Shown in pieces: positions 35,865-64,000 of a stretch of 64,000 bases of DNA; the first letter of the stretch is position 1, and each line of letters starts with the position of its first letter. Source of the DNA: an uncultured Fibrobacterota bacterium. GTDB lineage: Bacteria > Fibrobacterota > Chitinivibrionia > Chitinivibrionales > FEN-1185. The notes beneath the pieces are model-generated. The model had not been told where the DNA came from, made no database searches, and saw nothing but the letters and a program-made list of their open reading frames with translations. The DNA is taken from positions 1 through 64,000 of the forward strand of contig CAVWBU010000021.1 in assembly GCA_963753345.1 (NCBI GenBank). The letters run 5' to 3'. The translations under genes and the position numbers were made by a program.

Positions 35865-35879
35865 GGTTTCAAGCAGGAG

Positions 35880-36935: not shown

Positions 36936-36950
36936 GGTTCCTCATCTTAA

Positions 36951-47516: not shown

Positions 47517-48401
47517 TTACTCGCTTATCTTCATCTTCAGCACATCCGGGTTAAACGCCTTTACCGATACGCTCACCCGATCTCCCGGCGCAAGTCCTGC
47601 GGCTTCTTCGTGGGAGAGCGCGATACGTGATATTTTCTCTCCTACCGCTATTGTTACCACATTGACCGCACCCTGTGTCCGGTTATCGAGCACCTGCCCC
47701 GACACTCTCAGACGGTCGCCGTGGCCGCCGAAAATTTCCTGCGGCGTTCCGGAAGCGGCCACCGATCCGTCGGCGATACGCATAACCCTCGTTGCCAGCC
47801 TGAAGATCTCGCCGCAATCGTGGCTCACCAGAAACGTCAACACCGGCATGGCGCGCCTGGCCGACGCAAGCGCTTCCTGGAGCGAGTTCCTCATCGCAGG
47901 GTCGAGCGCCGACAGCGGCTCGTCAAGGAGCAATACCGATGGGCTTGCCGCGAGCGTGCGTGCAAGCGCGACGCGTTGCTGCTGGCCGCCGGACAACATT
48001 GCAGGCAGGCTGCGGCGGAGCCCGGACAGCCCAAATGTTTCCAGAAGGGAATCGACAACACTCCCGTCGGTTCCCCGCGCGAGTCCGTATCGCACGTTCT
48101 GTTCGACGGTCATTTTGGAAAAAAGCGCGTACTCCTGAAACACGAGTCCCACGCGCCGATGCTGCGGAGGGACGTTGGTACGCGCCGCCGAGTCGAACAA
48201 AACCCGTTCTCCGAAAGTGATGCGCCCCTCATCAGGTTCCGTAAGGCCGGCGATCATGCGCAGCAGGGTGGTTTTTCCCGCCCCCGAAGGTCCGAACAGG
48301 GCGATGCATTCCGCACCGTCCGCATCAATGCGAAAATCAAGATTGAAGGTCGTGCCCCGGGCACAAAGCTTCTTGCACACCGTCATGGAAAACGCGGCCA
48401 T
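47517..48401 (-). CDS. modC: Molybdate ABC ATPase with C-terminal TOBE
   Basis: ALFGPSGAGKTTLLRMIAGL, VPPQHRRVGLVFQEYALF, LSGGQQQR, VSHD. Confidence 0.9.
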   Translation of the reverse strand: MAAFSMTVCKKLCARGTTFNLDFRIDADGAECIALFGPSGAGKTTLLRMIAGLTEPDEGRITFGERVLFDSAARTNVPPQHRRVGLVFQEYALFSKMTVEQNVRYGLARGTDGSVVDSLLETFGLSGLRRSLPAMLSGGQQQRVALARTLAASPSVLLLDEPLSALDPAMRNSLQEALASARRAMPVLTFLVSHDCGEIFRLATRVMRIADGSVAASGTPQEIFGGHGDRLRVSGQVLDNRTQGAVNVVTIAVGEKISRIALSHEEAAGLAPGDRVSVSVKAFNPDVLKMKISE

Positions 48402-48402
48402 G

Positions 48403-49074
48403 TCACCAGGTCCTTGCGAATCGCTTGTTGACAAGGATGAGCAGGAACAGCACGGCGAACGAGACGACCACCAGTACCGCCGAATACAGGTGCGCCGCGG
48501 CGAAATGGAGCGATTCGACTTCGTCGTAGACGGCAATTGACGCAACGCGCGTCACGCCGGGGATTTTGCCGCCGATCATGAGCACCATGCCGAACTCGCC
48601 AATGGTGTGCGCGAACGTGAGGATAAGCCCCGTCAGTATGCTCGGCCGGATCGAGGGCAGCAGCACCCGCCAGAACGTTGTCCAGCGGCCCTTCCCCAGA
48701 ACAAAACTCGCTTCGCACAGCGACCGCGGCAGCGACTCCAGCCCCGACAGCACCGGATTGACCATGAACGGCACGTTGAACAGCACAGACCCGACTACGA
48801 GCCCCTCAAAGGTGAACACGAGGCGCAGGTGGAAAACGTGCTGCAAAAAGTGGCCAAGCGGCGCCGAGGGATTGAACAGGAGGAGGAGGTAAAACCCGAC
48901 GACCACCGGCGGGAGCACGAGCGGCAGGTTGACGAGCACCCGCGCCACGTATCCTGCGGGAGAGCGCGTGAAATACAGCCAGAGCACGAGCGGCAGGGAC
49001 AGCACGAACAGTATGACCGCCGCCACCGCGGCGAGCTTCAGGGAAAGGATCAGCGGCACGGGATCGAAGCTCAC
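48403..49074 (-). CDS. modB: Molybdate ABC permease
   Basis: LPLVLPPVVVGFYLL, FAHTIGEFGMVLMIGG.IPG.TRVAS. Confidence 0.93.
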   Translation of the reverse strand: MSFDPVPLILSLKLAAVAAVILFVLSLPLVLWLYFTRSPAGYVARVLVNLPLVLPPVVVGFYLLLLFNPSAPLGHFLQHVFHLRLVFTFEGLVVGSVLFNVPFMVNPVLSGLESLPRSLCEASFVLGKGRWTTFWRVLLPSIRPSILTGLILTFAHTIGEFGMVLMIGGKIPGVTRVASIAVYDEVESLHFAAAHLYSAVLVVVSFAVLFLLILVNKRFARTW

Positions 49075-49475
49075 CCGGCCTCCGGAGCGATCATCACTTC
49101 GGTGGATTTGACAAGCGCGAACACCTGCGTCCCGGCAGAAAGCCCCAGGTCCCGTGCGCTTTCGGACGTGATGAGCGCGGCAAGCGGTGTTCCGGAAAAG
49201 TCAAGATTCACGCGGCCGAGAACGCCGTCGTCCTCAACCGACTTCACGGTGCAGGGCAGCCTATTGCGTATGCTCAATTTTCCCTCGAACGTGCCAAGGG
49301 CAAGCGCTGTTTCGGACTCCTTGAAACAGACGGTCACCTGCGCGCCCTGCTCCGGGAGAAACGAAGGCTCCTCGAGCAGGACCGCAGTGACCGTTGCAGG
49401 ACCGAGATTCACCGTGATCTTTGCGATCGCGCCGCTGGATTCTCGCGAGACAAGCGTTCCGGCGAGGCGGTTCAC
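49071..49475 (-). CDS. Double TOBE/Mop molybdate-binding protein
   Basis: FKESE, LSIRNRL, ALIT.ESARDLGL..G..V.ALVKSTEV; GTG start overlapping the modA stop. Confidence 0.85.
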   Translation of the reverse strand: MNRLAGTLVSRESSGAIAKITVNLGPATVTAVLLEEPSFLPEQGAQVTVCFKESETALALGTFEGKLSIRNRLPCTVKSVEDDGVLGRVNLDFSGTPLAALITSESARDLGLSAGTQVFALVKSTEVMIAPEAG

Positions 49476-50224
49476 GGCAGCGAATACCCGAACTGTTTCA
49501 TGATGTTCCGCGCCTCGTCGCCAAGCAGAAAAGCCACGAATTTCTCCGCAACTTCGGGGTTGTTGTCGGCACCGTACCTGCACACCACAACGCCCTGGGC
49601 AATAACGCTGTAAAGAGTGCTGTCAACATCTGCCCACGTCCCTTTATCCTTGTTCTGCGGAGACAGAACGATCGATTTTGCGGTAAACCCGATGTTTGCC
49701 GCACCGGTGACAATATACTGCGCGGCCTGAGCGATATTGTCGCCATAAACGATGCGGGATGAAACACCGTCATAGATGCCGGCATTTTTCATGGCGCGCA
49801 CCGATTCCCTGCCATAGGGCGCGAGCCTTGGGTCTGCAATGGCGATTTTCTGGATGCCGGCGTCGGCAAGTCCAGCCACCCCCTTTTCGGCAAGACCGGG
49901 TTTGAGCGACCAGAGCACGAGCTTTCCGTAGGCATAGACTTTCGGTTTGTCAACGGCATATTTCCAGACGAAAAGGCTTTCGGGATAGTCCATGTCCGCG
50001 GATACGAACACGTCGAACGGTGCGCCGTTTTTTATCTGCGAAACGAATTTTCCCGAGGCGCCGTAGACTGGTCTGATCTGGCTGCCGGTTTTCTCATACG
50101 CGGTTTTGATTTCGTCCATGGCATACTGCATGTTCGCGGCGCAGGCGACCGTGGCCTGGGAAAAAACGCTTTTACAGACAAAGAGCGCTACAAGCACTCC
50201 AATATATGCAAATGATTTTCTCAT
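49472..50224 (-). CDS. modA: Molybdate-binding periplasmic protein
   Basis: AAN, YGASGK..QIKNGAPFDVFVSAD, IAIADP.LAPYG, GDNIAQA. Confidence 0.93.
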   Translation of the reverse strand: MRKSFAYIGVLVALFVCKSVFSQATVACAANMQYAMDEIKTAYEKTGSQIRPVYGASGKFVSQIKNGAPFDVFVSADMDYPESLFVWKYAVDKPKVYAYGKLVLWSLKPGLAEKGVAGLADAGIQKIAIADPRLAPYGRESVRAMKNAGIYDGVSSRIVYGDNIAQAAQYIVTGAANIGFTAKSIVLSPQNKDKGTWADVDSTLYSVIAQGVVVCRYGADNNPEVAEKFVAFLLGDEARNIMKQFGYSLP

Positions 50225-50279
50225 GGGGTTCCTCTACTTTTAAAATAGTAAACGGCTTGTTGGGTCCCGAACATTCCCT

Positions 50280-51605
50280 TCAAAATTGGACCTGGAAATT
50301 GATCGCAACCATATCGCCGCGCATGGTCACATTTCCGTTTGCGTCAGGCGGTGCACTCTCATAGAGGGATTTCGGCCTTCCGCCTTGCTTGATATAATGT
50401 GCTGCGATTTTAAATCTGTTTTTATTCAGATACCAGTTGAGCCCGGCATCTAAGATGTGGTCGACACCGTTGGGATCAACCACGCTTGCCGCATCGCCGT
50501 CAAATTCGGTGTACATGAGCGCCGGTTCGAGAAACTGGCCCTTGGGAAGCGGAATGTCGTACCCGCCCCTGATATGGTACACCCGGTCCTCAAAGTTTGC
50601 GGCCGGCGCTTTCACGAGACCGCCGTGGTAGGAAATGCCGTTGACGCTGCGGGACATGACATCGTATTCACCATCGACATTGAGCCCCATGAAATTCCCC
50701 ACAAAGTCTCCGCCGAAGCTTCCATTTTTCTGAAAACCGCCGACGTACTTTACAGCGCCGGAATACGTCTTTGTGGCGGCAGCATACTTTACTGCGCTCG
50801 TGTCCCACGTTTCGTCCGTTGCACCCTGATAGCTGTAATGACCGCCGAACGTTATTCCCCTGCGCTGCCCGAAAAAATTGATATCGGGAGAAAGACGGTA
50901 CGAAGGCATGTCCGCATCAAAAAGGCTCACCGCGAGCCGGCCGACCGCCAGCGGATGCCATTTCCGGGGCCCGCCATCCGTTCCGGCAATCAATCCCTGC
51001 GTCGGATCAAATCCTCCAATATTATACGCCACCCCGACAAATTTTGAACCGTAAAATCCGCCGACATTCACGCCGGTTTCACGTCCGCTTGTCCTGCCTG
51101 TTAAAAAGGACCGCAGGTACGTGCTCGTTAACCCTTTGTCAAGAGAATTGACTCCTGCGTCGGGAGCAATGTTCTCATGCCCGCTTTGGGGCCGGAAATA
51201 CCCGAAGGTGATGTTCGCAAACCTTGGTTCAACCGCGTAGGTCATGTACAGGTCGTAGAGCTGGAAGGTGGCGTTCGTGGTGGCCTGGCCGGTGCCCAGC
51301 GAACCCGTGAACTGGTCTTTGCCGAGGTTGTCAAAGGCAAAGATTGTGGAATAGGTCAGGTTCGGGATCGCCTGGCCCTGCACGCCGACCCTGCCTTGTT
51401 TTAGAAAAAGGTCGGCGCAGTTAGAGGTGGCAGGCACATCATTCACATTCCACGTGTATGCCCCCCACACTTGGTACGTTTGTATCAGTTCCAGGTCGGA
51501 TTTTCCGTCGTTGAAGGTAAGTTTTGGCCCTGCAAAGATGGAAGGGGCGGATACGGTAGCCATGATCAGAAAAACAGCTGCAGTACAGACGATACAAGGT
51601 TTCAT
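50280..51605 (-). CDS. Putative anion porin (OprO/OprP-like beta-barrel)
   Basis: Signal peptide, GRETG, amphipathic strands, AGLNWYL, terminal FQVQF. Confidence 0.65.
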   Translation of the reverse strand: MKPCIVCTAAVFLIMATVSAPSIFAGPKLTFNDGKSDLELIQTYQVWGAYTWNVNDVPATSNCADLFLKQGRVGVQGQAIPNLTYSTIFAFDNLGKDQFTGSLGTGQATTNATFQLYDLYMTYAVEPRFANITFGYFRPQSGHENIAPDAGVNSLDKGLTSTYLRSFLTGRTSGRETGVNVGGFYGSKFVGVAYNIGGFDPTQGLIAGTDGGPRKWHPLAVGRLAVSLFDADMPSYRLSPDINFFGQRRGITFGGHYSYQGATDETWDTSAVKYAAATKTYSGAVKYVGGFQKNGSFGGDFVGNFMGLNVDGEYDVMSRSVNGISYHGGLVKAPAANFEDRVYHIRGGYDIPLPKGQFLEPALMYTEFDGDAASVVDPNGVDHILDAGLNWYLNKNRFKIAAHYIKQGGRPKSLYESAPPDANGNVTMRGDMVAINFQVQF

Positions 51606-51633
51606 GGTGAGTCCTTTCAGGAAGTTTATGGTG

Positions 51634-52509
51634 TTATTTTTTCACTTTTTGCGGTGAGTTTTGTTTGACCGCCAGCGGTATGAATGACTGCCGGTGAAAT
51701 TTCTCTATGCCGAACTCGGCGATGTATTTCTGGACATCCGGTGAGGTCAGAAAGCCGATGAATTGCATTGCCGCAACGTAATTCACCTTCGGGAACTTAG
51801 CCGGATTTATCGCCATGACATCGTAGTTGGTGAAAAGCTTGGCCGTGTCTTCCACCAACGGCACCAAATCAACGGTCTCCTGCATCTGTGTAAACGACGC
51901 CCACTGGGAAATGAAGTACGCTCGTTTCTTTGCGGCCATGGTCAATGTTTCCGACGTTCCTAACTTTGTTACAATGTACCAGTCGCCCTCCGGTTTTATT
52001 TTTATCATTTTCCAGAGCCGCAACTCCAACATATGCGTGCCGGATGAATCCCCTCTTGAAAAGAAGGTCGCCTTTGCTTTGGCGATCGTTTTCAAGGCCT
52101 CAAGTGCGTCCTTCATGCCCTTGATCTTTGCCGGATCCTCTTTTGGGCCCACGAGCACGAAATCCGAATAGCACACCTGCCGGAAATTCACCGCATACCC
52201 GTCCTTGATGAGCTGCTCCTCTTGCTCCTGGTCATGCCCCATCATAACGTCAATGTCATCAACGTCACTCGTGCCTTGATTGGCCCTGATGAACTTTACG
52301 GCGTCCCCGGTGCAAAGCGAGAGCACCTTGACGGGTATCTTATACTCCGCTTCAAATTTCTTGGCAAGCCCATTTGCCAAGCCCGGCGAAACGCAGGTAA
52401 CGGGGAAGATGACTTTCAATTCCCTTGCAGGATTTTCCGCCGCCTTTAATCCAGGCGACAATGTGAGAAAAAGACTTAAAACTGGCAGGAGAAGAATTCT
52501 TGTGGTCAT
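51634..52509 (-). CDS. Divergent TupA-like (tungstate) binding protein
   Basis: DFVLVGP..DPAKI, FFSRGDSSGTH..E..LW, NY.V.AINP..FP.VN; canonical TTTS motif replaced by PVTC. Confidence 0.8.
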   Translation of the reverse strand: MTTRILLLPVLSLFLTLSPGLKAAENPARELKVIFPVTCVSPGLANGLAKKFEAEYKIPVKVLSLCTGDAVKFIRANQGTSDVDDIDVMMGHDQEQEEQLIKDGYAVNFRQVCYSDFVLVGPKEDPAKIKGMKDALEALKTIAKAKATFFSRGDSSGTHMLELRLWKMIKIKPEGDWYIVTKLGTSETLTMAAKKRAYFISQWASFTQMQETVDLVPLVEDTAKLFTNYDVMAINPAKFPKVNYVAAMQFIGFLTSPDVQKYIAEFGIEKFHRQSFIPLAVKQNSPQKVKK

Positions 52510-52561
52510 TAAAACCCCCCTTGTATGAATTGTATGAAAACACGTCGCGACATACGATAGT

Positions 52562-52589
52562 ATCGTAATATAATAAATTATATAACTGA
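52562..52589. promoter_or_regulatory. ModE-type operator upstream of tupA-porin-modA
   Basis: ATCGTAATATA-N6-TATATAAC fits the ModE consensus ATCGNTATATA-N6-TATATANCGAT. Confidence 0.75.
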
Positions 52590-52662
52590 GCCATAAAGAA
52601 AAATTTGGCCTGAGAAATGCGCTCGGCTCGGTTTTTGACTGCCAGAATGGATTTAAAACGGA

Positions 52663-53358
52663 ATGCTTGGTTCCTTATTCATCTGCAGCATGGTGCTTAC
52701 AATAACAATGCATACCAAACAACCACGCTATGATTTCTTGTATGAGTCAGCGATCCAGCAAGGCTGGTCCGGATGGGGTTGGGATGACCGGCTGGCGAAA
52801 GGCCCTGAACAAGTCGCACGCCTACTTGCTCAGCCGGATGTTCCTCCCAAAGGGAAAGTCCTTGAACTGGGCTGCGGTGAAGGACAACTTTGCAGGCTCC
52901 TTGCTCAACATGGGTATGATGTCACCGGCGTAGATATTTCGTCCGTGGCGATTTGCTGGGCGAAGGAAAAGAACGTTTTTCATCATACTGCTATTCGGTA
53001 TTTCCATGGGGATCTCAGTCGTGCCGACTTTCCGGTGCTGGAACAGTTTGATTTGATCGTTGATGGAAATTGTTTCCATTGCATTTTTGGTGATAGTCGT
53101 CCTGCCTTTCTGAAAAATGTGTATGCGAACCTATCAGATAGCGGGATCTTTTTTGTCAGTAGCTTATGCAGCCAAGATGCAGATAATCATATAATTCTAC
53201 GAGATGGCGAACCATATCGGCATGTTCCAACTTCCGACACTCTGAGAGATGAAGTCCAGCATGCGGGATTTGACGTATTAAATCTGCATATTTACAAGCA
53301 CAGCGAAAGGGATTATAACCATATAAATCTCTTTTGTAAAAAGCGGAACAAAGAGTAA
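52663..53358 (+). CDS. Class I SAM-dependent methyltransferase (true start may be about 52708)
   Basis: VLELGCGEG, TGVDIS, FDLIVDGNCFHCI. Confidence 0.85.
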   Translation: MLGSLFICSMVLTITMHTKQPRYDFLYESAIQQGWSGWGWDDRLAKGPEQVARLLAQPDVPPKGKVLELGCGEGQLCRLLAQHGYDVTGVDISSVAICWAKEKNVFHHTAIRYFHGDLSRADFPVLEQFDLIVDGNCFHCIFGDSRPAFLKNVYANLSDSGIFFVSSLCSQDADNHIILRDGEPYRHVPTSDTLRDEVQHAGFDVLNLHIYKHSERDYNHINLFCKKRNKE

Positions 53359-53425
53359 TGAAGCGGCCGGGCGAGCGCGACCCTCTGTTTTTGGCTGCGG
53401 TGCAAAAGCCAAGCAAATAACATAT

Positions 53426-54046
53426 CTATTTTTGAAAAACGATCCACGTTCCTGTTTCCCCGCCATCCACGCTCCCTTTTATCCCGAGCTCGTTTAGAAC
53501 CGCCTGGTAATATTCCGGGGAGAATTTCTGCACGCGTTCTTTTCTTCGCTTTTTCCATTCTTCGTTATCGGCGTTGAATTCTTCTACTTCACGCAACAAT
53601 TCGGCGGAACCGAAACCACCACCGATGTAGGCCCAGCCTTTGGGTTTTAAGACCCGCATCACCTCGGAAAGCCCCTTTTTATGGTCTTCCCAGAAGAAGA
53701 TCGATCCGCGGGATGCTACGAGGTCGATGGAGTTGTCGGCAAAAGGCAATTCCTCGGCCCTGCCCTGGCGGGCGCTCATTCTTTTCGCAAGTGATCGAGC
53801 CGCGATATTCTCCCTGGCCACATCAATGCACTCCTGCAGAAGGTCGCATACGGTAACCTGCAAATCCGACTGTTCGGTCAGCGCGATTCCGAGCATGCCG
53901 GGGCCGCCGCCCAAATCGATGCATATGCCTTGTGTAACGCCTGTGCGCTCGATAATCTGCTTCGCTACTAAAGGATAGACCTTTGTCATGGGACCGCGCA
54001 AAGCAGAATCATTATACCTGCGCGCATCCATGTGAAAACTATTCAC
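53426..54046 (-). CDS. Class I SAM-dependent methyltransferase
   Basis: CIDLGGGPG, LPFADNSIDLVASRGSIFFW, RVLKPKG.AYIGGGFG. Confidence 0.88.
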   Translation of the reverse strand: MNSFHMDARRYNDSALRGPMTKVYPLVAKQIIERTGVTQGICIDLGGGPGMLGIALTEQSDLQVTVCDLLQECIDVARENIAARSLAKRMSARQGRAEELPFADNSIDLVASRGSIFFWEDHKKGLSEVMRVLKPKGWAYIGGGFGSAELLREVEEFNADNEEWKKRRKERVQKFSPEYYQAVLNELGIKGSVDGGETGTWIVFQK

Positions 54047-55089
54047 AGCGGCGGAAGATGTTGGAGGATTCTATCCGCGTCCTGATCCGTGATATTCTTC
54101 CTATATAATTCGGCATAAAATGTTTTCATTTCCTTTATCATGTCCCATTCCTTGAATACCTGAGGATGAAATAATTTCGCCAAATATATCATGAGCAGCA
54201 CGCCTTCGCTGCTCGCATGGTCCCAGGCATACACTCCCATCGGAAGGCGATACACTTTGCCGTCCTTGACGGCCTTCAAGGACGCCCATTGTGGATTTTT
54301 CTTCAGGAAATCCATGGAATCACATAATCCGCTCATAAGAATGATATCCGGATTCCATGATACTATTTGAGCAATGGTGGCTTTCGCATGATTGTCGGTA
54401 AGCGCCTGAGGCAGATACTTGCCGCCGGCAACTTCGGCATTCCAATGCATGACGCTCCCCATTCCTTGGCTGCCGAGCGGATCGTTATGCAAGCCTCCGT
54501 AATACACCGCCGGTCTGTCTTTTTTGTCAAATTTAGATGTAACGGCAAGAATTTGCTTGACCTTTTTTTCGAAATATTTATTGTATTTATCCGCCCGTGC
54601 TTTCGCGTCCGGACCCAGTAGATCACCGAATAAGGTAACCTGCCTTTCAAAATTGTTCATGTAGTCATCAAGGTTCATGGGCCTTTTTTCCGCCGAGAAG
54701 GCGCAAACGGTCTTTACGCCAACGGAATCATACTGCTCATGCTTGGTCATCCCCGGTGTATAGAGCACAAAATCGACCTTCATGTCGGCTACCTGCTTCG
54801 GTTTCATGTCCTTATTCGAGCGGGCGTTTCTAATTTCCGGGAAAAGCTTAAAAGCCCATGGGGACTGCTCCGGCATGAGACAAATGCTGCTTCCCTTGCC
54901 GAGTGTCATGATTTTTTCCGCGGAAACGCAATGCATGCAGGCGATCCGTTGAGGATTGGCCGGAACTTCGACTTTGTTGTCGCACATGTCGGTTATTGTT
55001 TTATATTCTCCTGCGTAAAGTGAAGGACTATGCACACCTATCACGCAGAATACGGCAGATAGAATAACAAGAATATTTCTCTTGTCCAT
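54043..55089 (-). CDS. Class III (BtuF/FepB-like) ABC substrate-binding protein
   Basis: ITDM....VEVP.NPQRI, WNPDII, W.SLKAVKDGKVY..P.GVY.WD, FY. Confidence 0.85.
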   Translation of the reverse strand: MDKRNILVILSAVFCVIGVHSPSLYAGEYKTITDMCDNKVEVPANPQRIACMHCVSAEKIMTLGKGSSICLMPEQSPWAFKLFPEIRNARSNKDMKPKQVADMKVDFVLYTPGMTKHEQYDSVGVKTVCAFSAEKRPMNLDDYMNNFERQVTLFGDLLGPDAKARADKYNKYFEKKVKQILAVTSKFDKKDRPAVYYGGLHNDPLGSQGMGSVMHWNAEVAGGKYLPQALTDNHAKATIAQIVSWNPDIILMSGLCDSMDFLKKNPQWASLKAVKDGKVYRLPMGVYAWDHASSEGVLLMIYLAKLFHPQVFKEWDMIKEMKTFYAELYRKNITDQDADRILQHLPPL

Positions 55090-55217
55090 CGTAAGACCCT
55101 CCTTGTATTGTTTTATTTTTTGCAAATCTGAAAAGAAGCCCCCCGCTTCAAACGCAGGGGCTGTATTCAGACCTGCAAAATCCATAAATCATTTACAAAG
55201 GTATTTGAGTATCAATT

Positions 55218-57404: not shown

Positions 57405-57462
57405 AGGAATCCTTTCAGAAAAGAGTGGTTGAAAATCCCCAGGGTAGTTGCCTGACAAATAG

Positions 57463-57486
57463 CGTAATATGTTTTTTTATATTACG
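57463..57486. promoter_or_regulatory. Second ModE-type operator, upstream of the TonB-dependent receptor
   Basis: CGTAATATG-TTTTTT-TATATTACG; same half-site and 6-nt spacer as 52562-52589. Confidence 0.7.
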
Positions 57487-57606
57487 GTGGGTGACATATC
57501 CCTCCTTTGGATAGGTGTGACGAGGATAATTATTCAGAAACTTACAGGTTCACTTTCCGCAGTACGTGTCGTGAGTCCACGTATGGTTTGCGGCATCGCG
57601 CAACCT

Positions 57607-58389
57607 TTAAGACGTCTGCCGAGAATCGGCGCTTCCCGGACCCGCCCCGAGCATTTCAATACTGATTTTCTGCAACGCGCCTTGCGGAGCATGCATGATG
57701 CTGCCTCCACCCATCCCGAAATAGCGAAGGGTTTTTTGCACATCAATAATTCGTGAAGTGCCCAGCCGGTGCAGACCCAATTTGAACAAGACGGGTGTGA
57801 GCGGCACCGTTGGCCCCATGATGACACGGGTTGTTGCGTTAGGGGTCCTGCGAATTACCTCCCCGAACGTTCCGTTCACGAGCGTGAGCCCGGTCATGAA
57901 CACCAGTTTCGCACGGGAAAGCACGGCATGCGAATCGTCCCAATGAATGTCCCCCGGTCTGGGCAGAAGTTCCACAATGGATACCGGCCGCCCTTCATCG
58001 CGCCATATCTCGGCATCATGAAAATGGCCGATAAAACAGGAAGGGTGACTCTTGGTCTGCTCCGAAAACGGGTCTGTTGCCGAGCTTACGCTGAATTCGG
58101 TAACCAATGGGATCACGCATTTCAGGCAGGCCATGCCCACCGCAATCCGAAGAGCATCCGTCGAAGCAAGATGTTCTTCCGCGATTTCCGCTGCCTTCCG
58201 TCCTATCAGATCACCCAGCCAGGTGTCACGGGGGTTTTCGGTGAGTCCGGGAGTGGCTGAGAAGCAGGTTGACATTTCATAGCGCCCGGCTTTGATCACC
58301 ACCCAGTGATGGAATAGATGGATGTCTTCTATCAGAGCCGCATGATCCGTTATGGCGGGAATGAGCGTTTCACGTACAAGCGTTTCCAT
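57607..58389 (-). CDS. DUF364 (Rossmann-like, putative metal chelation) protein
   Basis: AVGMACL, FIGHF, IVEL.PRPGD, VFMTGLTLVNGT, MGPTVPLTP. Confidence 0.8.
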   Translation of the reverse strand: METLVRETLIPAITDHAALIEDIHLFHHWVVIKAGRYEMSTCFSATPGLTENPRDTWLGDLIGRKAAEIAEEHLASTDALRIAVGMACLKCVIPLVTEFSVSSATDPFSEQTKSHPSCFIGHFHDAEIWRDEGRPVSIVELLPRPGDIHWDDSHAVLSRAKLVFMTGLTLVNGTFGEVIRRTPNATTRVIMGPTVPLTPVLFKLGLHRLGTSRIIDVQKTLRYFGMGGGSIMHAPQGALQKISIEMLGAGPGSADSRQTS

Positions 58390-58431
58390 GGAATTTCTTT
58401 TCCTACATGTCAAACAATGATGCAACTCTAT

Positions 58432-59247
58432 TCATCGGACATCGGCCGGATGCAGCTTCACCATGCGCGCGCCCTGTTTGAAAATGGACCTGTCCCCTCC
58501 CTGAGCCACATGTTGCCAGATTTTATCGGCATCGATAACCGTGGTGCCGGCCAGGGACGCGATTCCTTTGCCGAACCACATAGGGGTCAGCGGAACGCTC
58601 GGACCGACCAGGACCATGCGGGTATTGTGGCCCAGTTCCATGAGCCGTGGCAATGTCTTGTTGGTGAGCGTGACACCGGTCATGAACAGAAAATCCTGAT
58701 CTTCCAGGATGTATTCACAAGCAGGATCCGGGAAATCGCCATCTTGGGGATTCCGTTCCAGGATCGAAAGCCGGCACACGGCCGCTAATTCGTCAAGGTC
58801 CGGAAAGTGGCCCACCACCGTTGCCTTCTTGCCGGTAAGCTCGGGTTTCATGACGACAAAGACACTCTCGTTGACCTGCGACTCCAGTTGCGCCTTCCAT
58901 ATCTTTGTCATTGTAGAAGGCGCATTGACATAGGCGTTGATCGCAGCAACACCAAGGGCCGCCTCGTATGGGTGCCATGACTTGACAAAAGCCGCCAGAT
59001 CACGCAGCCTGCGGCCCTTGAACGCTCCGGCGCCCGAAATGGAGTGGGAACCATGCGGTGGCGTCATGGCGACGCCAACCCCTGCCGAACGCACAAGCGT
59101 CCAGTGAATGCCGACAAGCACGTCGTCGACCATCAGGTCGCCGGGGATCAGCGAAATCAGTTGGTCGTACAACTCCCACTTCGACGAAGCAATCCCTTCG
59201 CCTGACGGGGTGGTGCCAGACGAATGGCGGTCACCAGGGTTTTTCAT
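58432..59247 (-). CDS. DUF364 protein (paralog)
   Basis: SWHPYEAALGVAAINA, VVGHFP, ILERNPQDGDFPDPACEY, TGVTLTNKTLPRL, VGPSVP. Confidence 0.88.
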   Translation of the reverse strand: MKNPGDRHSSGTTPSGEGIASSKWELYDQLISLIPGDLMVDDVLVGIHWTLVRSAGVGVAMTPPHGSHSISGAGAFKGRRLRDLAAFVKSWHPYEAALGVAAINAYVNAPSTMTKIWKAQLESQVNESVFVVMKPELTGKKATVVGHFPDLDELAAVCRLSILERNPQDGDFPDPACEYILEDQDFLFMTGVTLTNKTLPRLMELGHNTRMVLVGPSVPLTPMWFGKGIASLAGTTVIDADKIWQHVAQGGDRSIFKQGARMVKLHPADVR

Positions 59248-60107
59248 TTCTTCTCCGATTTATCAGGTGTGATGGTTCCCTCCTCGTGCCACGGAAACCT
59301 GAAATGTTCTGGCGTACCTTTGTTGATGAGGAGAATTATCTGAGCCAATATTGCCAAGGCGATCTGCTCTGGAAGATTGTTGGCGATCTTCAAACCTACC
59401 GGCGAGTAAAGCCTGTTGTCAACGCGGACGTTGCGGGAACGGATATTGTTGACGATGACGCCGATTTTCTTCTGGCTGCCGATCATACCGATATAGGGGA
59501 CATCCTTGTTCCGAAGGAGTTGTTCCAGGCAGACTTCGTCGTGAACGTGGCCGTGAGTGAGAATAACACAATAGCTGGCTTGACTGAGCCGGATGGATTC
59601 CGAAAGTGTTTCGTATGGTTTGCACACGCGCTCAATGGCCGTGGGAAAACGTTCGGGAGAAGCGAATTCCGGTCGATTGTCAAAAACGCGGTATGGCATA
59701 TACAGGACTTCGCAAAGCTTGCCAAGCCTTTCGCCGATATGGCCGCCCCCGAATATGACCACCTCGTTCGGCGGGAGTATCGGCTCAATGAATACCGTGA
59801 CCTTTCCTCCGCATATCGACTGAATCGTCTTCTCCGGTGTAACCTGCCATTTGTCGCCCGCCAGGGAAAAATCCAGCGTCTTGCATTTGTCTTCCTTGAT
59901 GGCTGCGAGTGCCTCCTCGCGGCTGATATGTTCCACCGGACCGCCGCCCACCGAACCGGCAATCTCGTTCGCCACGCTTACCACCATCTTGGAGCCCACA
60001 CCCCGCGGCGCGGAACCTTCGGCTTTTATAATAGTTACAATCGCGCAGGCGATTCCCTTGTTCTTCCATTCATTCAAACTCTTGAGCCACATGGTCGCTC
60101 CTTTCAA
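59244..60107 (-). CDS. XdhC/CoxI/YqeB family Moco-handling accessory protein
   Basis: GSAPR..GSKM, GSVGGG.VE, CGG.V.VFIE, IFGGGHIG, YIGMIGS.KK, SPVGL.I, PEQIALAI.AQI. Confidence 0.9.
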   Translation of the reverse strand: MKGATMWLKSLNEWKNKGIACAIVTIIKAEGSAPRGVGSKMVVSVANEIAGSVGGGPVEHISREEALAAIKEDKCKTLDFSLAGDKWQVTPEKTIQSICGGKVTVFIEPILPPNEVVIFGGGHIGERLGKLCEVLYMPYRVFDNRPEFASPERFPTAIERVCKPYETLSESIRLSQASYCVILTHGHVHDEVCLEQLLRNKDVPYIGMIGSQKKIGVIVNNIRSRNVRVDNRLYSPVGLKIANNLPEQIALAILAQIILLINKGTPEHFRFPWHEEGTITPDKSEKK

Positions 60108-60147
60108 ATCTGTGAGGATAGGACCGGCGTACGAGATACAGAGGCCC

Positions 60148-60813
60148 TTATTCCAGCCGATACTCCATCGGAAACTTCACCATGACCCGCACAGGTGGAC
60201 GTGGAAACGGGGCCGCCCGCCTGATCGTGGACACGGCATCCTTGTCGAGTATCGAAGCCCCCGATCCCTTGAGTATGTCAATATTCTCAACTCCGCCGTC
60301 TTCGCGCACACAGAACGAGAGATAGACCGTGCCGGAGATTTTCATTTCGAGCGCTATGGGCGGATAAACTGCTTTACGGTAGATGATGTCACGGATGTAT
60401 TCGAACTGCTCCTTAAAGTACCGTTGCCGCTCCTTCTCCCGGACTTGACCCGTGTCCTGTGGCATTCCTATGGGGCCGATCGAGGCAACCTGGACCGGCT
60501 GATCGTCCACTCCGCTTGACTCGGCATCCGCAAACTGCGCCGTTTCGGCAATGGTATCTTGGGCAGTCGTGTCGGGAAATGCCTCTTCTTCCTTTACCGG
60601 CGGAGGGGCGGGCCTTCTGGTGTGCCGGAGAGCCGGTTCCGGCAGGGAGACCGTCGATGCCGCCGTCGGTATCACCGGCGATTTCTCGATGCTGAAATCG
60701 ATCGTGAGCGTGCGCGCCGCCGGAACAGAAAACGCCGCAAGGCCGGTCACGGCGGTGATGAAAACCCCGTGGATCGCCAGGGACACAAGCGTTGCACGTT
60801 TCTCATACGTCAT
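60148..60813 (-). CDS. tonB: Energy transducer TonB
   Basis: SLAIH TM motif, Pro-rich linker, YPPIA...G.V, GSG..LDK.A...IRRAAPFP. Confidence 0.88.
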   Translation of the reverse strand: MTYEKRATLVSLAIHGVFITAVTGLAAFSVPAARTLTIDFSIEKSPVIPTAASTVSLPEPALRHTRRPAPPPVKEEEAFPDTTAQDTIAETAQFADAESSGVDDQPVQVASIGPIGMPQDTGQVREKERQRYFKEQFEYIRDIIYRKAVYPPIALEMKISGTVYLSFCVREDGGVENIDILKGSGASILDKDAVSTIRRAAPFPRPPVRVMVKFPMEYRLE

Positions 60814-61190
60814 CGCTTGGACTCCGTTTGCAGACTGACCCGGGTGAATCCATCGGTCTTAATAACATCGAGCACGTTCACGAACGTCTGAAGGGCAATG
60901 TTCCTGTCCGCGCGGATAAGGATCGGTGTGGACCGATCTATGTTCCTGAGCGCCTCAAACAGCGCCCGCTGACACACGGGAACGGCATTGTAGTAGATCG
61001 TGCCCGTGCGGTCGATTTCGACCGTCTGTATCCGCAGCAGGTCCTCCCGGTTCCTGGATGCCTGCGGCAACTGCAACGGGATGGATCCTGCCGCAACCAG
61101 CGTTGATGTGGTAAGTACGATGGTCAACAGCACCAGCATCACGTCAACGAACGGTATCACGTTTATATAGTCGAATTCTTTCTCATCCAT
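60810..61190 (-). CDS. exbD: Biopolymer transporter ExbD
   Basis: [25 protein letters not shown]. Confidence 0.9.
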
Positions 61191-61614
61191 GATGAATGTC
61201 CCATTCAAGGAGCAGTCTCTTGACTTTTCGCAATAGGAAATTATACAGTACCACGGACGGAATTGCGACAAGCAGGCCGACCGCGGTCGCCTTGAGCGCC
61301 AGGGCAAGGCCCACCATGATTCTGCCCGTATCCATGAATCCCTGGTTGCCCAGAGTGTAGAATGTCAACATGATGCCCAGCACCGTGCCCAGCAGGCCCA
61401 CATACGGCGCGCTGCTGCCGATGGTGGCGATTATGTGAACCCGGGACGTCAGCATGAGTTCCAATTCCTTCCTGTTGGTGAAGTCGCCGGGCCGGATGCG
61501 GCGGTACGTGAGCCACCGTTCGATCGCCACGCTCACCGAGACCACGCTGAGCAATACCAGAAGTCCGACGATTCCGTAGTCGATCGCGAATTTCAGCCAT
61601 TCCATAGTTTTCAT
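61183..61614 (-). CDS. exbB: TonB-system energizer ExbB (short type)
   Basis: [38 protein letters not shown]. Confidence 0.9.
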
Positions 61615-61635
61615 TCCTTCGCCCGCATAGGGCGT

Positions 61636-62718
61636 TCAATGCGCAAGCGCCCGGTCCAGCAGTTCCGCGCATTCCGTGTCGCTGAGCTTTTTGAAATAGA
61701 ACAGCTCGTAGAACCGCTTGGTTTCGGCGCGCATGTCAAGTTTCATCCGGTCCGGATAGAGCAGGTTGGTCAGCCACCGCAGACCGATGATGCGATTGAC
61801 GGACGGCGGCCTGTCGAACCAGCCGAAGGGCAGCGACGGTATCTCGTACACCTTCTTGTTCTTTACGGCATCAAGAATCTGCCACGCGGGGTCGGACATG
61901 ATTTTGGCGAAGTTTTCCGTGCCGTGAGCGAACCCATGATCAACCTGCACGATGATCGTCTCCGGTTTCCATAGCAGCAACTGCTCGAAGGAGACGGCGG
62001 CGCGGCCGTACCCGCGCACCATGGGTACATCGGCCACATTATCTCCGCCCACCATGTCAAGCACCTCGGCATGCATTGACCCCTTCGGGTCCGTTTCCAA
62101 CCCGTTGAGTCCTTCGGCGTAGTAAACCCGTATACGCTTCTGCGCCGGTACCGATGCGGCAACGGCGACGACCGTATCGAGGGTCTGCCGGCAATATCGG
62201 GCAAGGGTATCGGCGCGACGTTGTTCACCGATGAGGGCGCCAACAAAGCGGTACGATGTGTCAAGCGATGTCAGCCGGCCATCGACCATGATCACCGGCG
62301 TTCCAAGTTGCTTCTCCATGCGCTCCGCCGCGGAAATGTCGGTTTTGTCAAGATACCCCATCGACAGAACGATGTCGGGTTTCGCCTTGATGATCACTTC
62401 GGGGTTACCGGTGGTGCTTTTGCCGAACCACCCTCCGAGCAGCGGTTTTTTATTGTACTCCTCAACAAGGAATCGTCGTTCGTCCGCGTCCGGGTTCCAG
62501 GTTGTGCCGGTAATTTTCGCCGGCGCCAGCGTGTACATCATCACCTCGCCCATCGGCGACGTCGAGTAGACGGACCGGATGGTAGCGGGGACAGTGACAT
62601 GGCGGCCTGCCATGTCCACGATGGTTCGTCCTGAAGGAGACGCGGCCCAGCAGATGCCCGCCGAAAGCGCCGTGAAGACCAGCAGCGGAGTCATCATTCG
62701 CAAATTCCTGTTCGTCAC
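61636..62718 (-). CDS. Class III ABC substrate-binding protein
   Basis: IVDMAGR.V.VP, NPEVII..KPD, VYYAEG..GL.TD..GS.H, PFGWFDRPPSVNR..G. Confidence 0.88.
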   Translation of the reverse strand: MTNRNLRMMTPLLVFTALSAGICWAASPSGRTIVDMAGRHVTVPATIRSVYSTSPMGEVMMYTLAPAKITGTTWNPDADERRFLVEEYNKKPLLGGWFGKSTTGNPEVIIKAKPDIVLSMGYLDKTDISAAERMEKQLGTPVIMVDGRLTSLDTSYRFVGALIGEQRRADTLARYCRQTLDTVVAVAASVPAQKRIRVYYAEGLNGLETDPKGSMHAEVLDMVGGDNVADVPMVRGYGRAAVSFEQLLLWKPETIIVQVDHGFAHGTENFAKIMSDPAWQILDAVKNKKVYEIPSLPFGWFDRPPSVNRIIGLRWLTNLLYPDRMKLDMRAETKRFYELFYFKKLSDTECAELLDRALAH

Positions 62719-63491
62719 ATCGCACCTCCTAGGGCCGGAACGCACAAAAAGCGGCCTTGTGCCACCGAAACAATGTCAACGTCAATCCCGTACATTCTTT
62801 TGAGCAGCGCGCAGGTCAGCACCTCCTTGGGCGGGCCGTCGGCCGCTACGCGGCCGTCCAACAGCGCGATCACCCGCGTGGCGCATGCGAATGCGTGGTC
62901 GGGGATGTGGGTTGTGATCATTACTCCCATGTTGCCGGTTGCGAGTTGCCGGATAAGGTTCAACGCCCGGATCTGATTGCCGAAATCAAGATGCAACGTG
63001 GGTTCGTCCATGATGAGAAATTGCGGCGACTGCGCCAGCGCGCGTGCAATCAGCACCAGTTGGCGTTCGCCCCCGCTTATCTGCGCGTAGTTGCGTTCGG
63101 CCAGATGGCCGATATGCAACAGGTCCATTACGCGCGCCGCTTCGAGCCTGTCGTGGTGCGAGGGAATGGAGAAGGCGCCGATAAAGGGCGTCCTTCCCAT
63201 GAGAACAACATCAATGGCGCTGAAGGGAAAAGGCGGGATGTGGATCTGGGGGACATAGGCCAGAGTCCGTGCTCGTTCCCTCGTCGTAAATGTTCGCGCC
63301 GGCCGCTCATCGAAGTGGATATCGCCGGACGAGGGAATGAGCCCGAGAATCGCCTTGAAAAGCGTGGTTTTGCCCGAGCCGTTGGGTCCCAGCAGGCAGA
63401 CGACCTCGCCCGAACACAACGATGCGTTGATTTCCGAAACAACCGTGCGCGAACCGTATCCCGCCGATATGTTGTGCATCGCCAATTTCAT
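62715..63491 (-). CDS. FecE/BtuD-type ABC ATPase
   Basis: GPNGSGKTT, AYVPQ, ISGGERQLVLIARALAQ, MDEPT.HLD. Confidence 0.92.
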   Translation of the reverse strand: MKLAMHNISAGYGSRTVVSEINASLCSGEVVCLLGPNGSGKTTLFKAILGLIPSSGDIHFDERPARTFTTRERARTLAYVPQIHIPPFPFSAIDVVLMGRTPFIGAFSIPSHHDRLEAARVMDLLHIGHLAERNYAQISGGERQLVLIARALAQSPQFLIMDEPTLHLDFGNQIRALNLIRQLATGNMGVMITTHIPDHAFACATRVIALLDGRVAADGPPKEVLTCALLKRMYGIDVDIVSVAQGRFLCVPALGGAM

Positions 63492-64000
63492 ACCCACCCC
63501 CTGCGCCCCCGGGCGAGCAGAAATACGAAAAACGGCGCGCCGATGATCGCGGTCAGGATGCCGATGGGTATTTCGATGGGGAACGCGACGCGCGCTACGG
63601 TGTCGACGAGGAGCAGGAACGCACCTCCCAAAAGCAGCGATGCTGGGAGCAGCACCGGGAAAGAGGGGCCCACAAGCATGCGGGCCAGGTGCGGCACCAC
63701 CAACCCGATCCAGCCGATCATGCCGCTGATGGACACCGCCGCGGCGGTCATCAATGTTGAAGACACGATCGCGATAGCCCGAATCCGTCCCGCGTCCACT
63801 CCCATGGCCTTGGCTTCCTCGTCGCCGAAGGAGAGCACATTGATGCGCCACCGCACGAGCAGCAAAGGGATGGCGCCCGCCAGGGTCGCGATTGCGGCGA
63901 TGCGGGCGTCGGATATGTTGACAGATGCCAGGCTTCCCATAAGCCAATAGGTGATCGCTGGTAGCTTTGAGTAAGGATCGGCGACGTACTTGATAAGCGA
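63488..64000 (-). CDS. FecCD/BtuC-type ABC permease, C-terminal part (continues beyond the window)
   Basis: WLMGSL, GDEEAKAMGV, G.IGWIGLVVPH.AR, EIPIGILTAIIGAP. Confidence 0.92.
   Translation of the reverse strand, partial: SLIKYVADPYSKLPAITYWLMGSLASVNISDARIAAIATLAGAIPLLLVRWRINVLSFGDEEAKAMGVDAGRIRAIAIVSSTLMTAAAVSISGMIGWIGLVVPHLARMLVGPSFPVLLPASLLLGGAFLLLVDTVARVAFPIEIPIGILTAIIGAPFFVFLLARGRRGWV

Follow-up and report, generated by a model that had tools for sequence, protein, structure and literature searches.

To our knowledge, the uptake of molybdenum (Mo) and tungsten (W) by bacteria has been described only as the work of inner-membrane pumps for the free oxyanion, namely ModABC, TupABC, WtpABC and MolBC-A. 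In the passages cited here, MolBC-A of Haemophilus influenzae is presented as a type II ATP-binding cassette (ABC) importer with a class III periplasmic binding protein, MolA, serving free molybdate and tungstate (PMC4031551, PMC4245157); molB is repressed by molybdate (PMC4031551), the regulator of molABC was said in these papers to be unknown, and the mol cluster adjoins modA and modD (PMC3928620). We describe a gene island at the end of a stretch of 64,000 nucleotides (the window, positions 1-64000 of contig CAVWBU010000021.1, here C21) from an uncultured Fibrobacterota bacterium, whose genome comprises 4.5 Mb in 55 contigs and is 94% complete. To the known means of Mo/W uptake, represented by ModABC and a MolBC-like importer, this island adds a TonB-dependent receptor under predicted ModE control with its own TonB and a conserved set of FmdE, XdhC-like and DUF364 proteins. 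We consider it probable, with ample room for doubt, that the island is a ModE-repressed Mo/W acquisition system which combines two uptake routes with cytoplasmic handling proteins and delivers the metal rather than a finished pterin cofactor.

In the proposed mechanism, route 1, encoded by the mod unit, would comprise an OprO/P-like porin, ModA and a TupA-like binding protein, the ModBC pump and a Mop buffer. Route 2, encoded by the FmdE and receptor units, would use the receptor, powered by its own ExbB-ExbD-TonB, for moving scarce or complexed Mo/W across the outer membrane, after which the binding proteins SBP1 and SBP2 would pass the Mo/W species to the MolBC-like importer. FmdE, the XdhC-family protein and two DUF364 paralogues, which are translationally coupled and of which DUF364 retains a conserved pocket of the adenosyl type, would act on the imported metal ahead of its entry into the cell's cofactor pathway, whatever that may be. 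Under ample molybdate, ModE would bind 24-bp palindromes before all three units and shut them off. We infer this repression, the substrate of the receptor and the order of the cytoplasmic events. The island substrate may be a molybdophore-type or organically bound form of Mo/W: an organically complexed or otherwise bulky species is given about an even chance as cargo of route 2, the free oxyanion at trace level a clearly smaller one, and other cargo the remainder.

Parts of this association were noted before. That DUF364 genes neighbour ABC systems and transporters of Fe, W, V and Mo was pointed out in 2010 (PMC2954201), as was a link between FmdE and metal transport (PMC2954224), and the linkage of DUF364 with mod genes was noted in 2024, when a modABC-DUF364 operon of Methanococcus maripaludis was reported, in the passage cited, to be cofit with nifH (bioRxiv 10.1101/2024.03.05.583561). 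No description of a Mo/W-regulated TonB-dependent receptor, or of the module as a unit, was found in the literature, subscription papers and supplements lying outside the search. The strings 'molybd' and 'tungst' do not occur in a 2024 review of TonB-dependent transporters, and in a joint search for Mo limitation and TonB-dependent transport, none of the 15 papers listed, of 16 found, used the term 'TonB-dependent'.

Regulatory signals before the three transcription units

The island consists of an FmdE-permease unit, a receptor unit and a tupA-like/mod unit, and each is preceded by a 24-bp palindrome of the form CGyWATAT-N8-ATATWrCG, AT-rich with CG flanks (beginning at C21:65294, 57463 and 52564, respectively). 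A regular expression written before any model was built matched three places in the 4.5-Mb genome, and two of these lie on the present contig. With a position weight matrix (PWM) made from the four sites seen, those sites scored 30.8-37.9 bits, and no other site in the genome exceeded 17.2; the matrix is circular for its own four sites, and it is the gap to the next one that is informative. Strong palindromes of this type thus number four in the genome, three of which precede the three island units. The pattern CGNNATAT-N8-ATATNNCG, with at most one mismatch, matched the window twice against 0.11 expected, a count reached in 0 of 100 shuffles; palindrome 2 is an exact match, and the closest relative (G041/G004, locus L008, 98% complete) has a box in the same position. 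The palindrome appears to resemble the consensus of the Escherichia coli ModE operator.

A ModE gene stands near the island. Its product has an N-terminal helix-turn-helix (HTH) followed by two Mop/TOBE domains; the two Mop domains scored 130 bits (cut-off 55, passed), the ModE_repress HTH model 88 bits (just below its cut-off of 98.5), and the full-length model NF007957 170 bits over positions 21-261 of 263 (cut-off 369). From these palindromes and this regulator the three units are predicted to be under ModE repression; with the boxes and riboswitches of relatives described below, they are very probably Mo/W-regulated.

The fourth palindrome, C21:83498-83521, is the best in the genome (37.9 bits). 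It lies between a minus-strand gene for a Fib_succ_major lipoprotein and a gene, starting 138 bp downstream, for a 471-aa protein with fn3/SdrD_B/Pur_ac_phosph_N domains, whose ESM Atlas features resemble immunoglobulin-like proteins secreted by the type IX system (T9SS). A Mo-regulated secreted protein would be unexpected.

Relatives of the module were collected by means of the anchor paralogue, DUF364a, from a one-genome-per-species collection that yielded 532 loci, of which the best 80 (43-86% identity, flanks up to 10 kb, 1.31 Mb in total, the nearest being from a Fibrobacteres bin) were used. Eight PWM sites of at least 18 bits occur in these 80, and seven of them fall within only three loci, L008 and L009 of Fibrobacterota and L010 of Holophagaceae, where they stand upstream of FmdE, DUF364, FecCD, receptor and modA genes.

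A different device was found in Firmicutes when Rfam was run on 21 related loci (10 Firmicutes, 7 Acidobacteriota and 4 others). The riboswitch RF01055, for the molybdenum cofactor (Moco) or its W counterpart, heads the DUF364 operon on the coding strand in 5 of the 10 Firmicutes loci (L022, L023, L056, L063 and L029). The gene order is riboswitch, FmdE, DUF364, FecCD and ATPase in Moorella, and riboswitch, FecCD, binding protein, DUF364 and ATPase in Acididesulfobacillus. The copies of L029 and L056 retain the P3 stem; it is missing from the three copies found in L023, which stand before mod/tup genes that have a DUF364 gene among them. P3-bearing riboswitches were tied to Moco and P3-less ones to the tungsten cofactor, according to the passage cited (Regulski et al., PMC2408646). 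ModE boxes and Moco/W riboswitches are two unrelated devices, and thus Mo/W is indicated twice for the same module. The Moorella locus also has a c-di-GMP-I riboswitch (L022 8108-8192, 82.7 bits), about 0.9 kb upstream of the Moco riboswitch and downstream of another DUF364 gene.

Signals of other kinds were looked for as well. An Rfam search of the window and the next 18 kb found no riboswitch (cobalamin, Moco or other) and a tRNA alone, and cobalamin riboswitches were found in 0 of the 21 related loci. None of the three promoter regions has a Fur box with five or fewer mismatches (the best have 6-9 of 19) when scored with the E. coli consensus, which may not be that of the host phylum. Scans of the window for sigma-70 promoters (16 against 11.7 +/- 3.7 in shuffles) and for terminators (22 against 20.0 +/- 4.6) did not differ from shuffled sequence; Fibrobacterota probably use promoter signals other than the sigma-70 type.

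Uptake and handling proteins of the module

The open reading frames (ORFs) of positions 47517-64000, and those of the contig beyond the window, were profiled against Pfam and NCBIfam. The FecCD-type permease has MolB (HI1471, 2NQ2) as its best match in the PDB (246.9 bits, E 3.7e-72, residues 55-385), followed by heme permeases at 172-174 bits (the next best at 173.6), FhuB at 165 and BtuC at 126-128. For its ATPase the best NCBIfam models are those of F420-0, heme and corrinoid ATPases, all under cut-off. In common with MolBC-A, the island combines an ATPase and class III binding proteins with a permease of the FecCD type and has modA and modD as neighbours, ModD beside the island being past the cut-off of TIGR01334. 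The two differ in that SBP1 and SBP2, both with visible signal peptides, are distant from MolA and lack its ligand contacts K221 and R264. The best PDB relative of SBP1 is 4PAG (180.6 bits), with MolA (3PSA/3PSH) reaching 48.5; that of SBP2 is 4OVK (78 bits), with MolA (3PSA) reaching 53.8. Both 4PAG and 4OVK are uncharacterised. A further difference is that the H. influenzae papers, in the passages cited above, describe no TonB-dependent receptor, ExbBD-TonB, FmdE, XdhC or DUF364.

The receptor matches TIGR01785 from end to end (positions 1-677 of 677, 95.9 bits, below cut-off), with the layout of an N-terminal plug and a C-terminal barrel, although at E <= 0.001 no match to the barrel model of Pfam was obtained. 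Its best PDB match, the plug of BtuB at 51 bits, assigns no substrate class. TonB-dependent uptake of metals, in the form of ions or of chelates, is known from ZnuD and OprC, and the island resembles the system of CntO, the receptor for metal-pseudopaline, in having a regulator-controlled receptor promoter, a periplasmic binding protein and an ABC importer. Between 62 and 87% of the sampled sequence words of the window are present in six DNA sequencing runs from two studies of peat and freshwater sediment metagenomes, one of which is possibly the source sample; no RNA run is listed among the runs containing the stretch. In peat and freshwater sediment Mo is low and largely organically bound, which fits an energised step at the outer membrane.

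Between the receptor unit and the modABC genes, the tupA-like/mod unit carries two further candidates. The 441-aa protein has no Pfam or NCBIfam match, and in the ESM Atlas 26 of its 30 nearest clusters carry PF07396 (Porin_O_P) with scores of 0.97-0.98; from this lead, given by language-model features, it is a candidate OprO/P-type anion porin co-transcribed with modA. The TupA-like protein has the tungstate-binding protein 3LR1 as its best PDB match (170.6 bits). It differs from TupA of TupABC in falling below the equivalog cut-off and in having no tupB or tupC beside it, the next genes being the porin candidate and modA-mop-modB-modC; 3LR1 is a relative at the level of the fold. The island agrees with the ModABC/ModE system of E. 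coli in that modA and modB pass their equivalog cut-offs, a Mop protein is present, ModE joins an HTH to two Mop domains and the operator palindromes are AT-rich with CG flanks. It departs from that system in three respects: ModE-type sites also lie before the units of the receptor and of the type II importer, the first genes of the mod unit encode a TupA-like protein and a candidate anion porin, and the full-length and HTH models of ModE are below their cut-offs.

Among the putative handling proteins, DUF364a is 33% identical to its paralogue DUF364b, has 954 relatives in the protein collection searched and is a clear homologue of Dhaf4260 (3L5O, 165.5 bits). Residues of Dhaf4260 were assigned to an adenosyl-binding pocket (PMC2954201, section 3.2), and alignments read by eye indicate that DUF364a retains them (the Gly-His loop, Glu148, Thr174 and Thr182). 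The two differ in that the transporter-linked clade has an invariant Cys-Glu (PDPACEY) where Dhaf4260 has Ser-Glu. The only characterised DUF364 enzyme is, by the passage cited, Orf5 of bonnevillamide biosynthesis, which cyclises 4''-methyl-S-adenosylmethionine (4''-methyl-SAM) to methylazetidine carboxylate (PMC12930334); it belongs to a secondary-metabolite cluster and acts on methyl-SAM, whereas the island paralogues belong to the transporter-linked clade. DUF364 genes also occur inside a plain modABC/modBC operon in L023, and with modABC alone in L023, L011 and L058.

XdhC-family proteins are Moco chaperones. The island member shares the two-domain architecture (XdhC_CoxI plus XdhC_C) of the XdhC/CoxF chaperones, with 2WE7 (79 bits) and 3ON5 as its best PDB matches, and differs from them in missing both equivalogs (NF045664, 200 bits against a cut-off of 350; TIGR02964, 117 against 161.6), in standing inside an uptake operon and in belonging to a genome without a client of the xanthine-oxidase family.

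The two methyltransferases of the window show a weak likeness to methylases of metalloids, none of it past a cut-off (ArsM, 44-47 bits; TehB/TPMT, 28-36 bits); for the one on the minus strand, TIGR01934 gave 54 bits and the ArsM models 44-47, likewise under their cut-offs. The plus-strand gene has a counterpart in 0 of the 80 related loci, and SBP2 and both methyltransferases are absent from L008. SAM methyltransferases recur beside the module in 11 of the 80 loci by tblastn, and by Pfam also in L019, L022, L010 and L074; TrmO_N-like genes (PF01980) were found in the spirochaete locus L060 and in L010, and L060 adds a NifS-like cysteine desulfurase and a PBP_like+HTH_17 regulator. These recurring extra genes lie at L060 7749-13009, L010 12520-13374 and L074 72-2333. 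The deltaproteobacterial locus L074 has XdhC-YqeC-MobA-like genes and a sigma-54 PAS activator, and a similar activator lies in the flank of this contig (L002 14364-15803).

Gene counts over the 80 best of the 532 loci were made by tblastn of the window proteins (E <= 1e-6, coverage >= 0.5) and are lower bounds, many loci being short contigs. FecCD was found in 56, the ATPase in 57 and an SBP1-type protein in 58, followed by FmdE (25), the receptor (23), modC-like genes (18), XdhC (12, spanning several phyla), modA (12), modB and the minus-strand methyltransferase (11 each), ModE (6), and ModD and DUF364b (5 each). FecCD, ATPase and SBP1 are adjacent in most of these loci, so the linkage goes beyond chance. 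Where loci were grouped by recorded phylum, the receptor is adjacent in 22 of 29 outer-membrane-type loci with FecCD, as against 0 of 42 monoderm-type loci; Pfam applied to six loci added one receptor missed by the filter (L060) and found two in L021. The deltaproteobacterial locus L019 has FmdE, two DUF364 genes, XdhC, receptor, binding protein, FecCD, ATPase, TonB and methyltransferase in a different order, and the same parts in another order speak for a functional module rather than inherited synteny. The initial annotation, which had proposed an Mo/W-regulated, TonB-dependent import system and had asked for conservation of its linkage, is supported on these points, though not throughout, by the ModE boxes of this genome and its relatives, the Firmicutes riboswitches, the receptor as a conserved part of the module in outer-membrane bacteria and the adjacency of the importer genes. 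Its premise, so far as it says that importers with class III binding proteins do not serve free oxyanions, is contradicted by MolBC-A, MolB being the closest match to the island permease.

Within the order, DUF364a occurs in 2 of 41 genomes, this one included, and the island is patchy among kin. In the closest relative the same island sits on a 673-kb contig, and Moco genes are lacking there too; contamination of the bin by the present contig was considered and dropped. Between the two, dN/dS (the ratio of nonsynonymous to synonymous divergence) is 0.10-0.25 at a dS of 0.22-0.49 for 12 of the 15 genes compared, from FmdE to the receptor plus the porin candidate, with no internal stops. Values are 0.14 for the receptor (90% identical), 0.20 for the porin candidate (87% identical) and 0.19 for DUF364b; the dS of the tupA-like gene is saturated, and modA, modB, modC and XdhC, with a dS of 1.2-2.5, are perhaps not strict orthologues. 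The low ratios and intact frames indicate that the island is functional and under purifying selection.

Competing explanations and the user of the metal

Several observations weigh against an Mo/W acquisition system of the kind proposed. ModE repression is a prediction from sequence and from likeness to the E. coli consensus, and the binding, transport and expression of all island proteins are likewise predicted. RF01055 was found in 0 of the 7 Acidobacteriota loci tested (nor in the 4 loci that are neither Firmicutes nor Acidobacteriota), and apart from L010 of Holophagaceae the Acidobacteriota loci have no PWM site of at least 18 bits; the Mo link is shown for part of the module family and not for a large share of it. 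The ligand contacts of MolA are named K221 and R264 in the passage cited (bioRxiv 10.64898/2026.10.15.759412), corresponding to K200 and R243 of the 3PSA chain by an inferred offset of 21, under which Y280 is Y301. They align to Ser and Asp in SBP1 (phmmer alignment to 3PSA) and, read by eye, to Ser and Leu in SBP2; as the contacts are not kept, neither protein is a MolA-type oxyanion binder. The recurring SAM-linked genes hint at chemistry on small molecules, for which a simple pump of oxyanions should have no use.

The remaining objection concerns the user of the metal. Profile searches of this 94% complete genome found no MoaC, MoeA_N or MoCF_biosynth, no MoaA over cut-off, and none of the AOR, dimethyl sulfoxide (DMSO)-reductase, xanthine-oxidase, sulfite-oxidase, MOSC or nitrogenase families, control genomes being positive for every family. 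With no recognisable user of Mo/W, the island has no evident purpose in this genome. Nitrogenase was considered as the Mo user here and rejected (0 matches), and the xanthine-oxidase and AOR families that could serve as XdhC clients (PF02738 and PF02730) also gave 0 matches. No molybdoenzyme or Moco-synthesis gene was found among the 20 island ORFs and 34 further ORFs of the window that were scanned, as had been said of the window from its letters. The closest relative is much alike: in G041/G004 no MoCF_biosynth, MoeA_N, MoaC, AOR, xanthine-oxidase-family or nitrogenase match was found, and the DMSO-reductase domain occurs only as a fragment of 56 positions (50.6 bits). In the genus, modA is present in 5 of 6 genomes, MoCF_biosynth in 0 of 6 and nitrogenase in 0 of 6.

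The loci led to 40 genomes that carry the module; MoeA is encoded in 34 of these, which so make their own Moco. The other six lack MoaC and enzymes of the xanthine-oxidase family as well, and four of these have NifDKEN; nitrogenase requires Mo and cannot use the pterin cofactor. The acquisition system favoured here is taken to deliver metal and not pterin because DUF364 occurs in modABC operons, MoeA in 34 of the 40 carriers, and NifDKEN in 4 of the 6 carriers lacking MoeA and MoaC.

What the metal serves in bacteria such as the present one would be answered differently if the complexed-Mo/W TonB pathway, through DUF364a and DUF364b, the XdhC-like protein, FmdE and ModD, fed an undescribed use of Mo/W, either a cofactor made or salvaged outside MoaABC/MoeA or a non-pterin centre. 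This we hold to be rather unlikely, if worth keeping in mind; it would explain purifying selection on the island in organisms without Moco synthesis, a known Mo/W enzyme or nitrogenase. The metal might be received by a protein whose gene lies 3 kb from modE, where a DUF134 gene is followed by the only Nitro_FeMo-Co gene of the genome (PF02579, ORP/NifX-like; C21:70886-71760 for the pair). This gene, C21:71395-71760, is the sole candidate Mo-binding family found; its product is weakly similar to the MrpORP ORP domain (29 bits) and may possibly bind a Mo cluster in a genome without nitrogenase.

The initial annotation had suggested that Moco, W-pterin or a molybdophore is scavenged, with DUF364 and XdhC as the putative agents of its unloading and delivery. 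If the cargo were the cofactor, the receptor and type II importer would take Moco, W-pterin, molybdopterin or a precursor from other microbes in anoxic peat, XdhC would hold it, and DUF364 and FmdE would remodel it. The chaperone role of the XdhC family, the translational coupling of the XdhC-like protein to DUF364a and the presence of XdhC in 12 of 80 loci agree with it, as do the Moco-linked P3 stems before the FecCD/DUF364 operons of L029 and L056, since cofactor riboswitches often govern importers of the same cofactor. This genome and 6 of the 40 other carriers lack both MoaC and MoeA. G042, a Fibrobacterota bin with the module but without MoaC and MoeA_N, fits the pattern of molybdoenzymes without Moco synthesis for which the initial annotation had proposed to look, having a DMSO-reductase-type gene (Molybdop_Fe4S4+Molybdopterin; L089, G042:C12), adjoining a phosphoenolpyruvate carboxykinase (PEPCK) gene 72.6% identical to that of this genome, and an AOR N-domain gene on a contig of 3.3 kb (L088, G042:C84). 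However, the completeness of that bin is not known and its AOR contig is unassignable, while G003, of the same genus as this genome, has a similar DMSO-reductase-type gene with neither MoCF_biosynth nor a DUF364a match. Four of the six Moco-less carriers have a nitrogenase that has no use for pterin, and 34 of the 40 carriers make their own cofactor. Moreover, none of the five families of Moco-dependent apoenzymes searched for was found in this genome, which also offers no client for XdhC, DUF364 also sits within modABC operons for bare oxyanions, and the permease is nearest to the small-substrate importer MolB and not to BtuC or heme permeases. Salvage of the cofactor is not supported, and we regard it as improbable.

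An equally improbable explanation, built by analogy with opine-type and nicotianamine-like metallophores, which serve other metals, is a self-made molybdophore or tungstophore. Here the DUF364 enzymes and methyltransferases would build a SAM-derived chelator that is released, captures Mo/W outside the cell and is recovered by the receptor together with the class III proteins and the type II importer. A type II importer served by a receptor and a class III binding protein is the usual arrangement for taking up chelates, SBP1 does not keep the ligand residues of MolA, the adenosyl-pocket residues of Dhaf4260 are conserved in DUF364a, and SAM methyltransferases (11 of 80 loci) and TrmO_N-like proteins recur beside the module. 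The chemistry has a precedent in the cyclisation of 4''-methyl-SAM by Orf5, as far as the cited passage goes (PMC12930334). Against these points, neither the island nor the six fully annotated loci showed a gene for an exporter, a non-ribosomal peptide synthetase (NRPS), IucA/IucC or an opine dehydrogenase, both window methyltransferases are missing from the locus of the closest relative, and where DUF364 accompanies modABC alone (L023, L011, L058 and Methanococcus) a secreted chelator would have no importer. Nicotianamine-type aminocarboxylate chelators, furthermore, bind divalent cations and not oxyanions. A self-made or processed Mo/W complex is nevertheless given a real minority probability because of the hints of small-molecule and sulfur chemistry.

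It is very unlikely that the island is, in this genome, a leftover from a nitrogen-fixing or Moco-making ancestor whose purpose has been lost: no Mo/W user was found in this genome, or in G041/G004 beyond the DMSO-reductase fragment, and G050, a related Fibrobacteria genome with the module, has nitrogenase, but dN/dS stays low from FmdE to the receptor with no internal stops, the ModE boxes are kept in both genomes, and modA persists in 5 of 6 genomes of a genus where MoCF_biosynth and nitrogenase are absent from all six. Least probable of all is an ordinary iron-siderophore, heme or cobalamin system merely beside mod genes, the label of automatic annotation, which has for it only that the receptor (through the BtuB plug), binding proteins, permease and ATPase match generic models of that kind, all below cut-off, and which is opposed, as the initial annotation had anticipated, by the palindromes before the receptor and FmdE-permease units, the absence of cobalamin riboswitches from the window, its flank and the 21 loci, the absence of Fur sites within five mismatches of a consensus that may not be the phylum's, the Moco/W riboswitches directly before homologous operons, and the closeness of the permease to MolB.

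Coordinates and neighbouring features

The features of the island are collected in the table. All the genes listed by the initial annotation are present by Pfam and NCBIfam, though its picture of one joined, wholly co-oriented region with a single methyltransferase has to be amended: there are three transcription units and two methyltransferases, one of them on the plus strand, and the porin is a language-model lead without profile support. Beyond the window, a TauE gene is divergent from FmdE, and a signal-peptide protein without a family, ModE and ModD then follow within 4 kb.

Table. Features of the Mo/W island in C21, from the modC end outwards (window positions unless marked C21; bit scores against the models named)
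Feature	Coordinates	Strand	Evidence and remarks
modC-type ABC ATPase	47517..48545	-	PF00005 114.8 bits; TIGR02142 207.8, under cut-off 285; maximal ORF, true start probably near 48400, just after modB
modB, molybdate ABC permease	48403..49074	-	TIGR02141 206.2 bits, cut-off 182.6 passed
Mop-like protein, two TOBE domains	49071..49583	-	PF03459 75.3 bits; TIGR00638 75.5, cut-off 55 passed; maximal ORF, overlaps end of modA; TOBE is a molybdate-binding fold
modA, periplasmic molybdate-binding protein	49472..50224	-	TIGR01256 178 bits, cut-off 62.5 passed; N-terminus reads as signal peptide
Candidate anion-selective OprO/P-like outer-membrane porin, 441 aa	50280..51605	-	ESM Atlas likeness (lead)
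TupA-like oxyanion-binding protein	51634..52509	-	NF041772 119.6 bits, under cut-off 400; first gene of mod unit
ModE-type palindrome 1	52564..52587		PWM 37.4 bits; 55-78 bp upstream of tupA-like gene
Class I SAM methyltransferase	52663..53358	+	PF13489 67.4, PF05724 (TPMT) 33.3, PF03848 (TehB) 27.6 bits
Class I SAM methyltransferase, UbiE/ArsM-like	53426..54046	-	PF08241 70.2 bits; overlaps end of SBP2 by 4 bp
SBP2, class III periplasmic binding protein	54043..55089	-	PF01497 56.9 bits; ORF to 55185, signal-peptide start about 55089
TonB-dependent outer-membrane receptor	55218..57404	-	Plug PF07715 79.8 bits; ORF to 57458, ATG about 57404
ModE-type palindrome 2	57463..57486		PWM 33.8 bits; in 148-bp gap between DUF364b and receptor
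DUF364 paralogue b	57607..58425	-	PF04016 94.7, PF13938 24.6 bits
DUF4213+DUF364 paralogue a, module anchor	58432..59247	-	PF04016 112.8, PF13938 76.8 bits
XdhC-family protein	59244..60107	-	PF13478 110.6, PF02625 64.5 bits, both past cut-off; overlaps DUF364a by 4 bp
TonB	60148..60813	-	PF03544 59.4 bits
ExbD	60810..61307	-	PF02472 78 bits; maximal ORF, true start probably near 61190
ExbB, short exbB2 type	61183..61614	-	TIGR02805 149.4 bits, cut-off 135.35 passed
SBP1, class III periplasmic binding protein	61636..62697	-	PF01497 60.4 bits; ORF to 62745, signal-peptide start about 62697
Type II (FecCD-type) ABC importer ATPase	62715..63500	-	PF00005 93.9 bits
MolB-like FecCD permease, 3' part	63488..64000, on to C21:64651	-	PF01032 276.8 bits
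FmdE	C21:64666-65286		Outside window; precedes permease
ModE-type palindrome 3	C21:65294-65317		Outside window; before FmdE unit

SBP2 and the two methyltransferases are missing from the island of L008, lie in a stretch of low G+C and look like a recent insertion; the stretch at 52-58 kb (G+C 0.47-0.49, as against 0.55-0.60 next door) also includes the receptor gene, which is common with L008. A tRNA of 89 nt with a long variable arm (45966-46054, minus strand) stands 1.5 kb from the modC end of the island and may be the insertion point of this island, patchy among kin; stretches beside the tRNA are low in G+C (0.46-0.49 at 42-46 kb).

Elsewhere in the window, a separate type I ABC importer (34188-38321, minus strand) consists of an SBP_bac_6 protein, a fused double BPD_transp_1 permease and an ATPase; it has the layout of a ferric-ion importer, and no ModE-type site was found near it. 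The citrate synthase gene at 8371-9530 is broken by a frameshift or an assembly error: overlapping ORFs at 8371-9075 and 9072-9530 match positions 1-203 and 223-356 of the Pfam model, respectively. It lies within a run of tricarboxylic acid (TCA) cycle genes (succinate dehydrogenase, succinyl-CoA synthetase and 2-oxoglutarate dehydrogenase).

Implications for Mo/W acquisition

If the proposed reading is true, a receptor controlled by ModE and energised by its own TonB system would give Mo/W the first dedicated passage known across the outer membrane, and would point to the long-sought receptor for metallophore-bound or organically bound Mo. The analysis also provides a Mo/W assignment, open to test, for a module carried by at least 532 genomes of the one-genome-per-species collection, among whose carriers are industrial acetogens dependent on W/Mo formate dehydrogenases. 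The assignment would extend to two old families of unknown function, DUF364 and the FmdE of non-methanogens, and would also cover transporters that are routinely mislabelled as iron or B12 systems. That this genus has no known user of Mo/W is a tangible clue to some use of the two metals that has escaped recognition.

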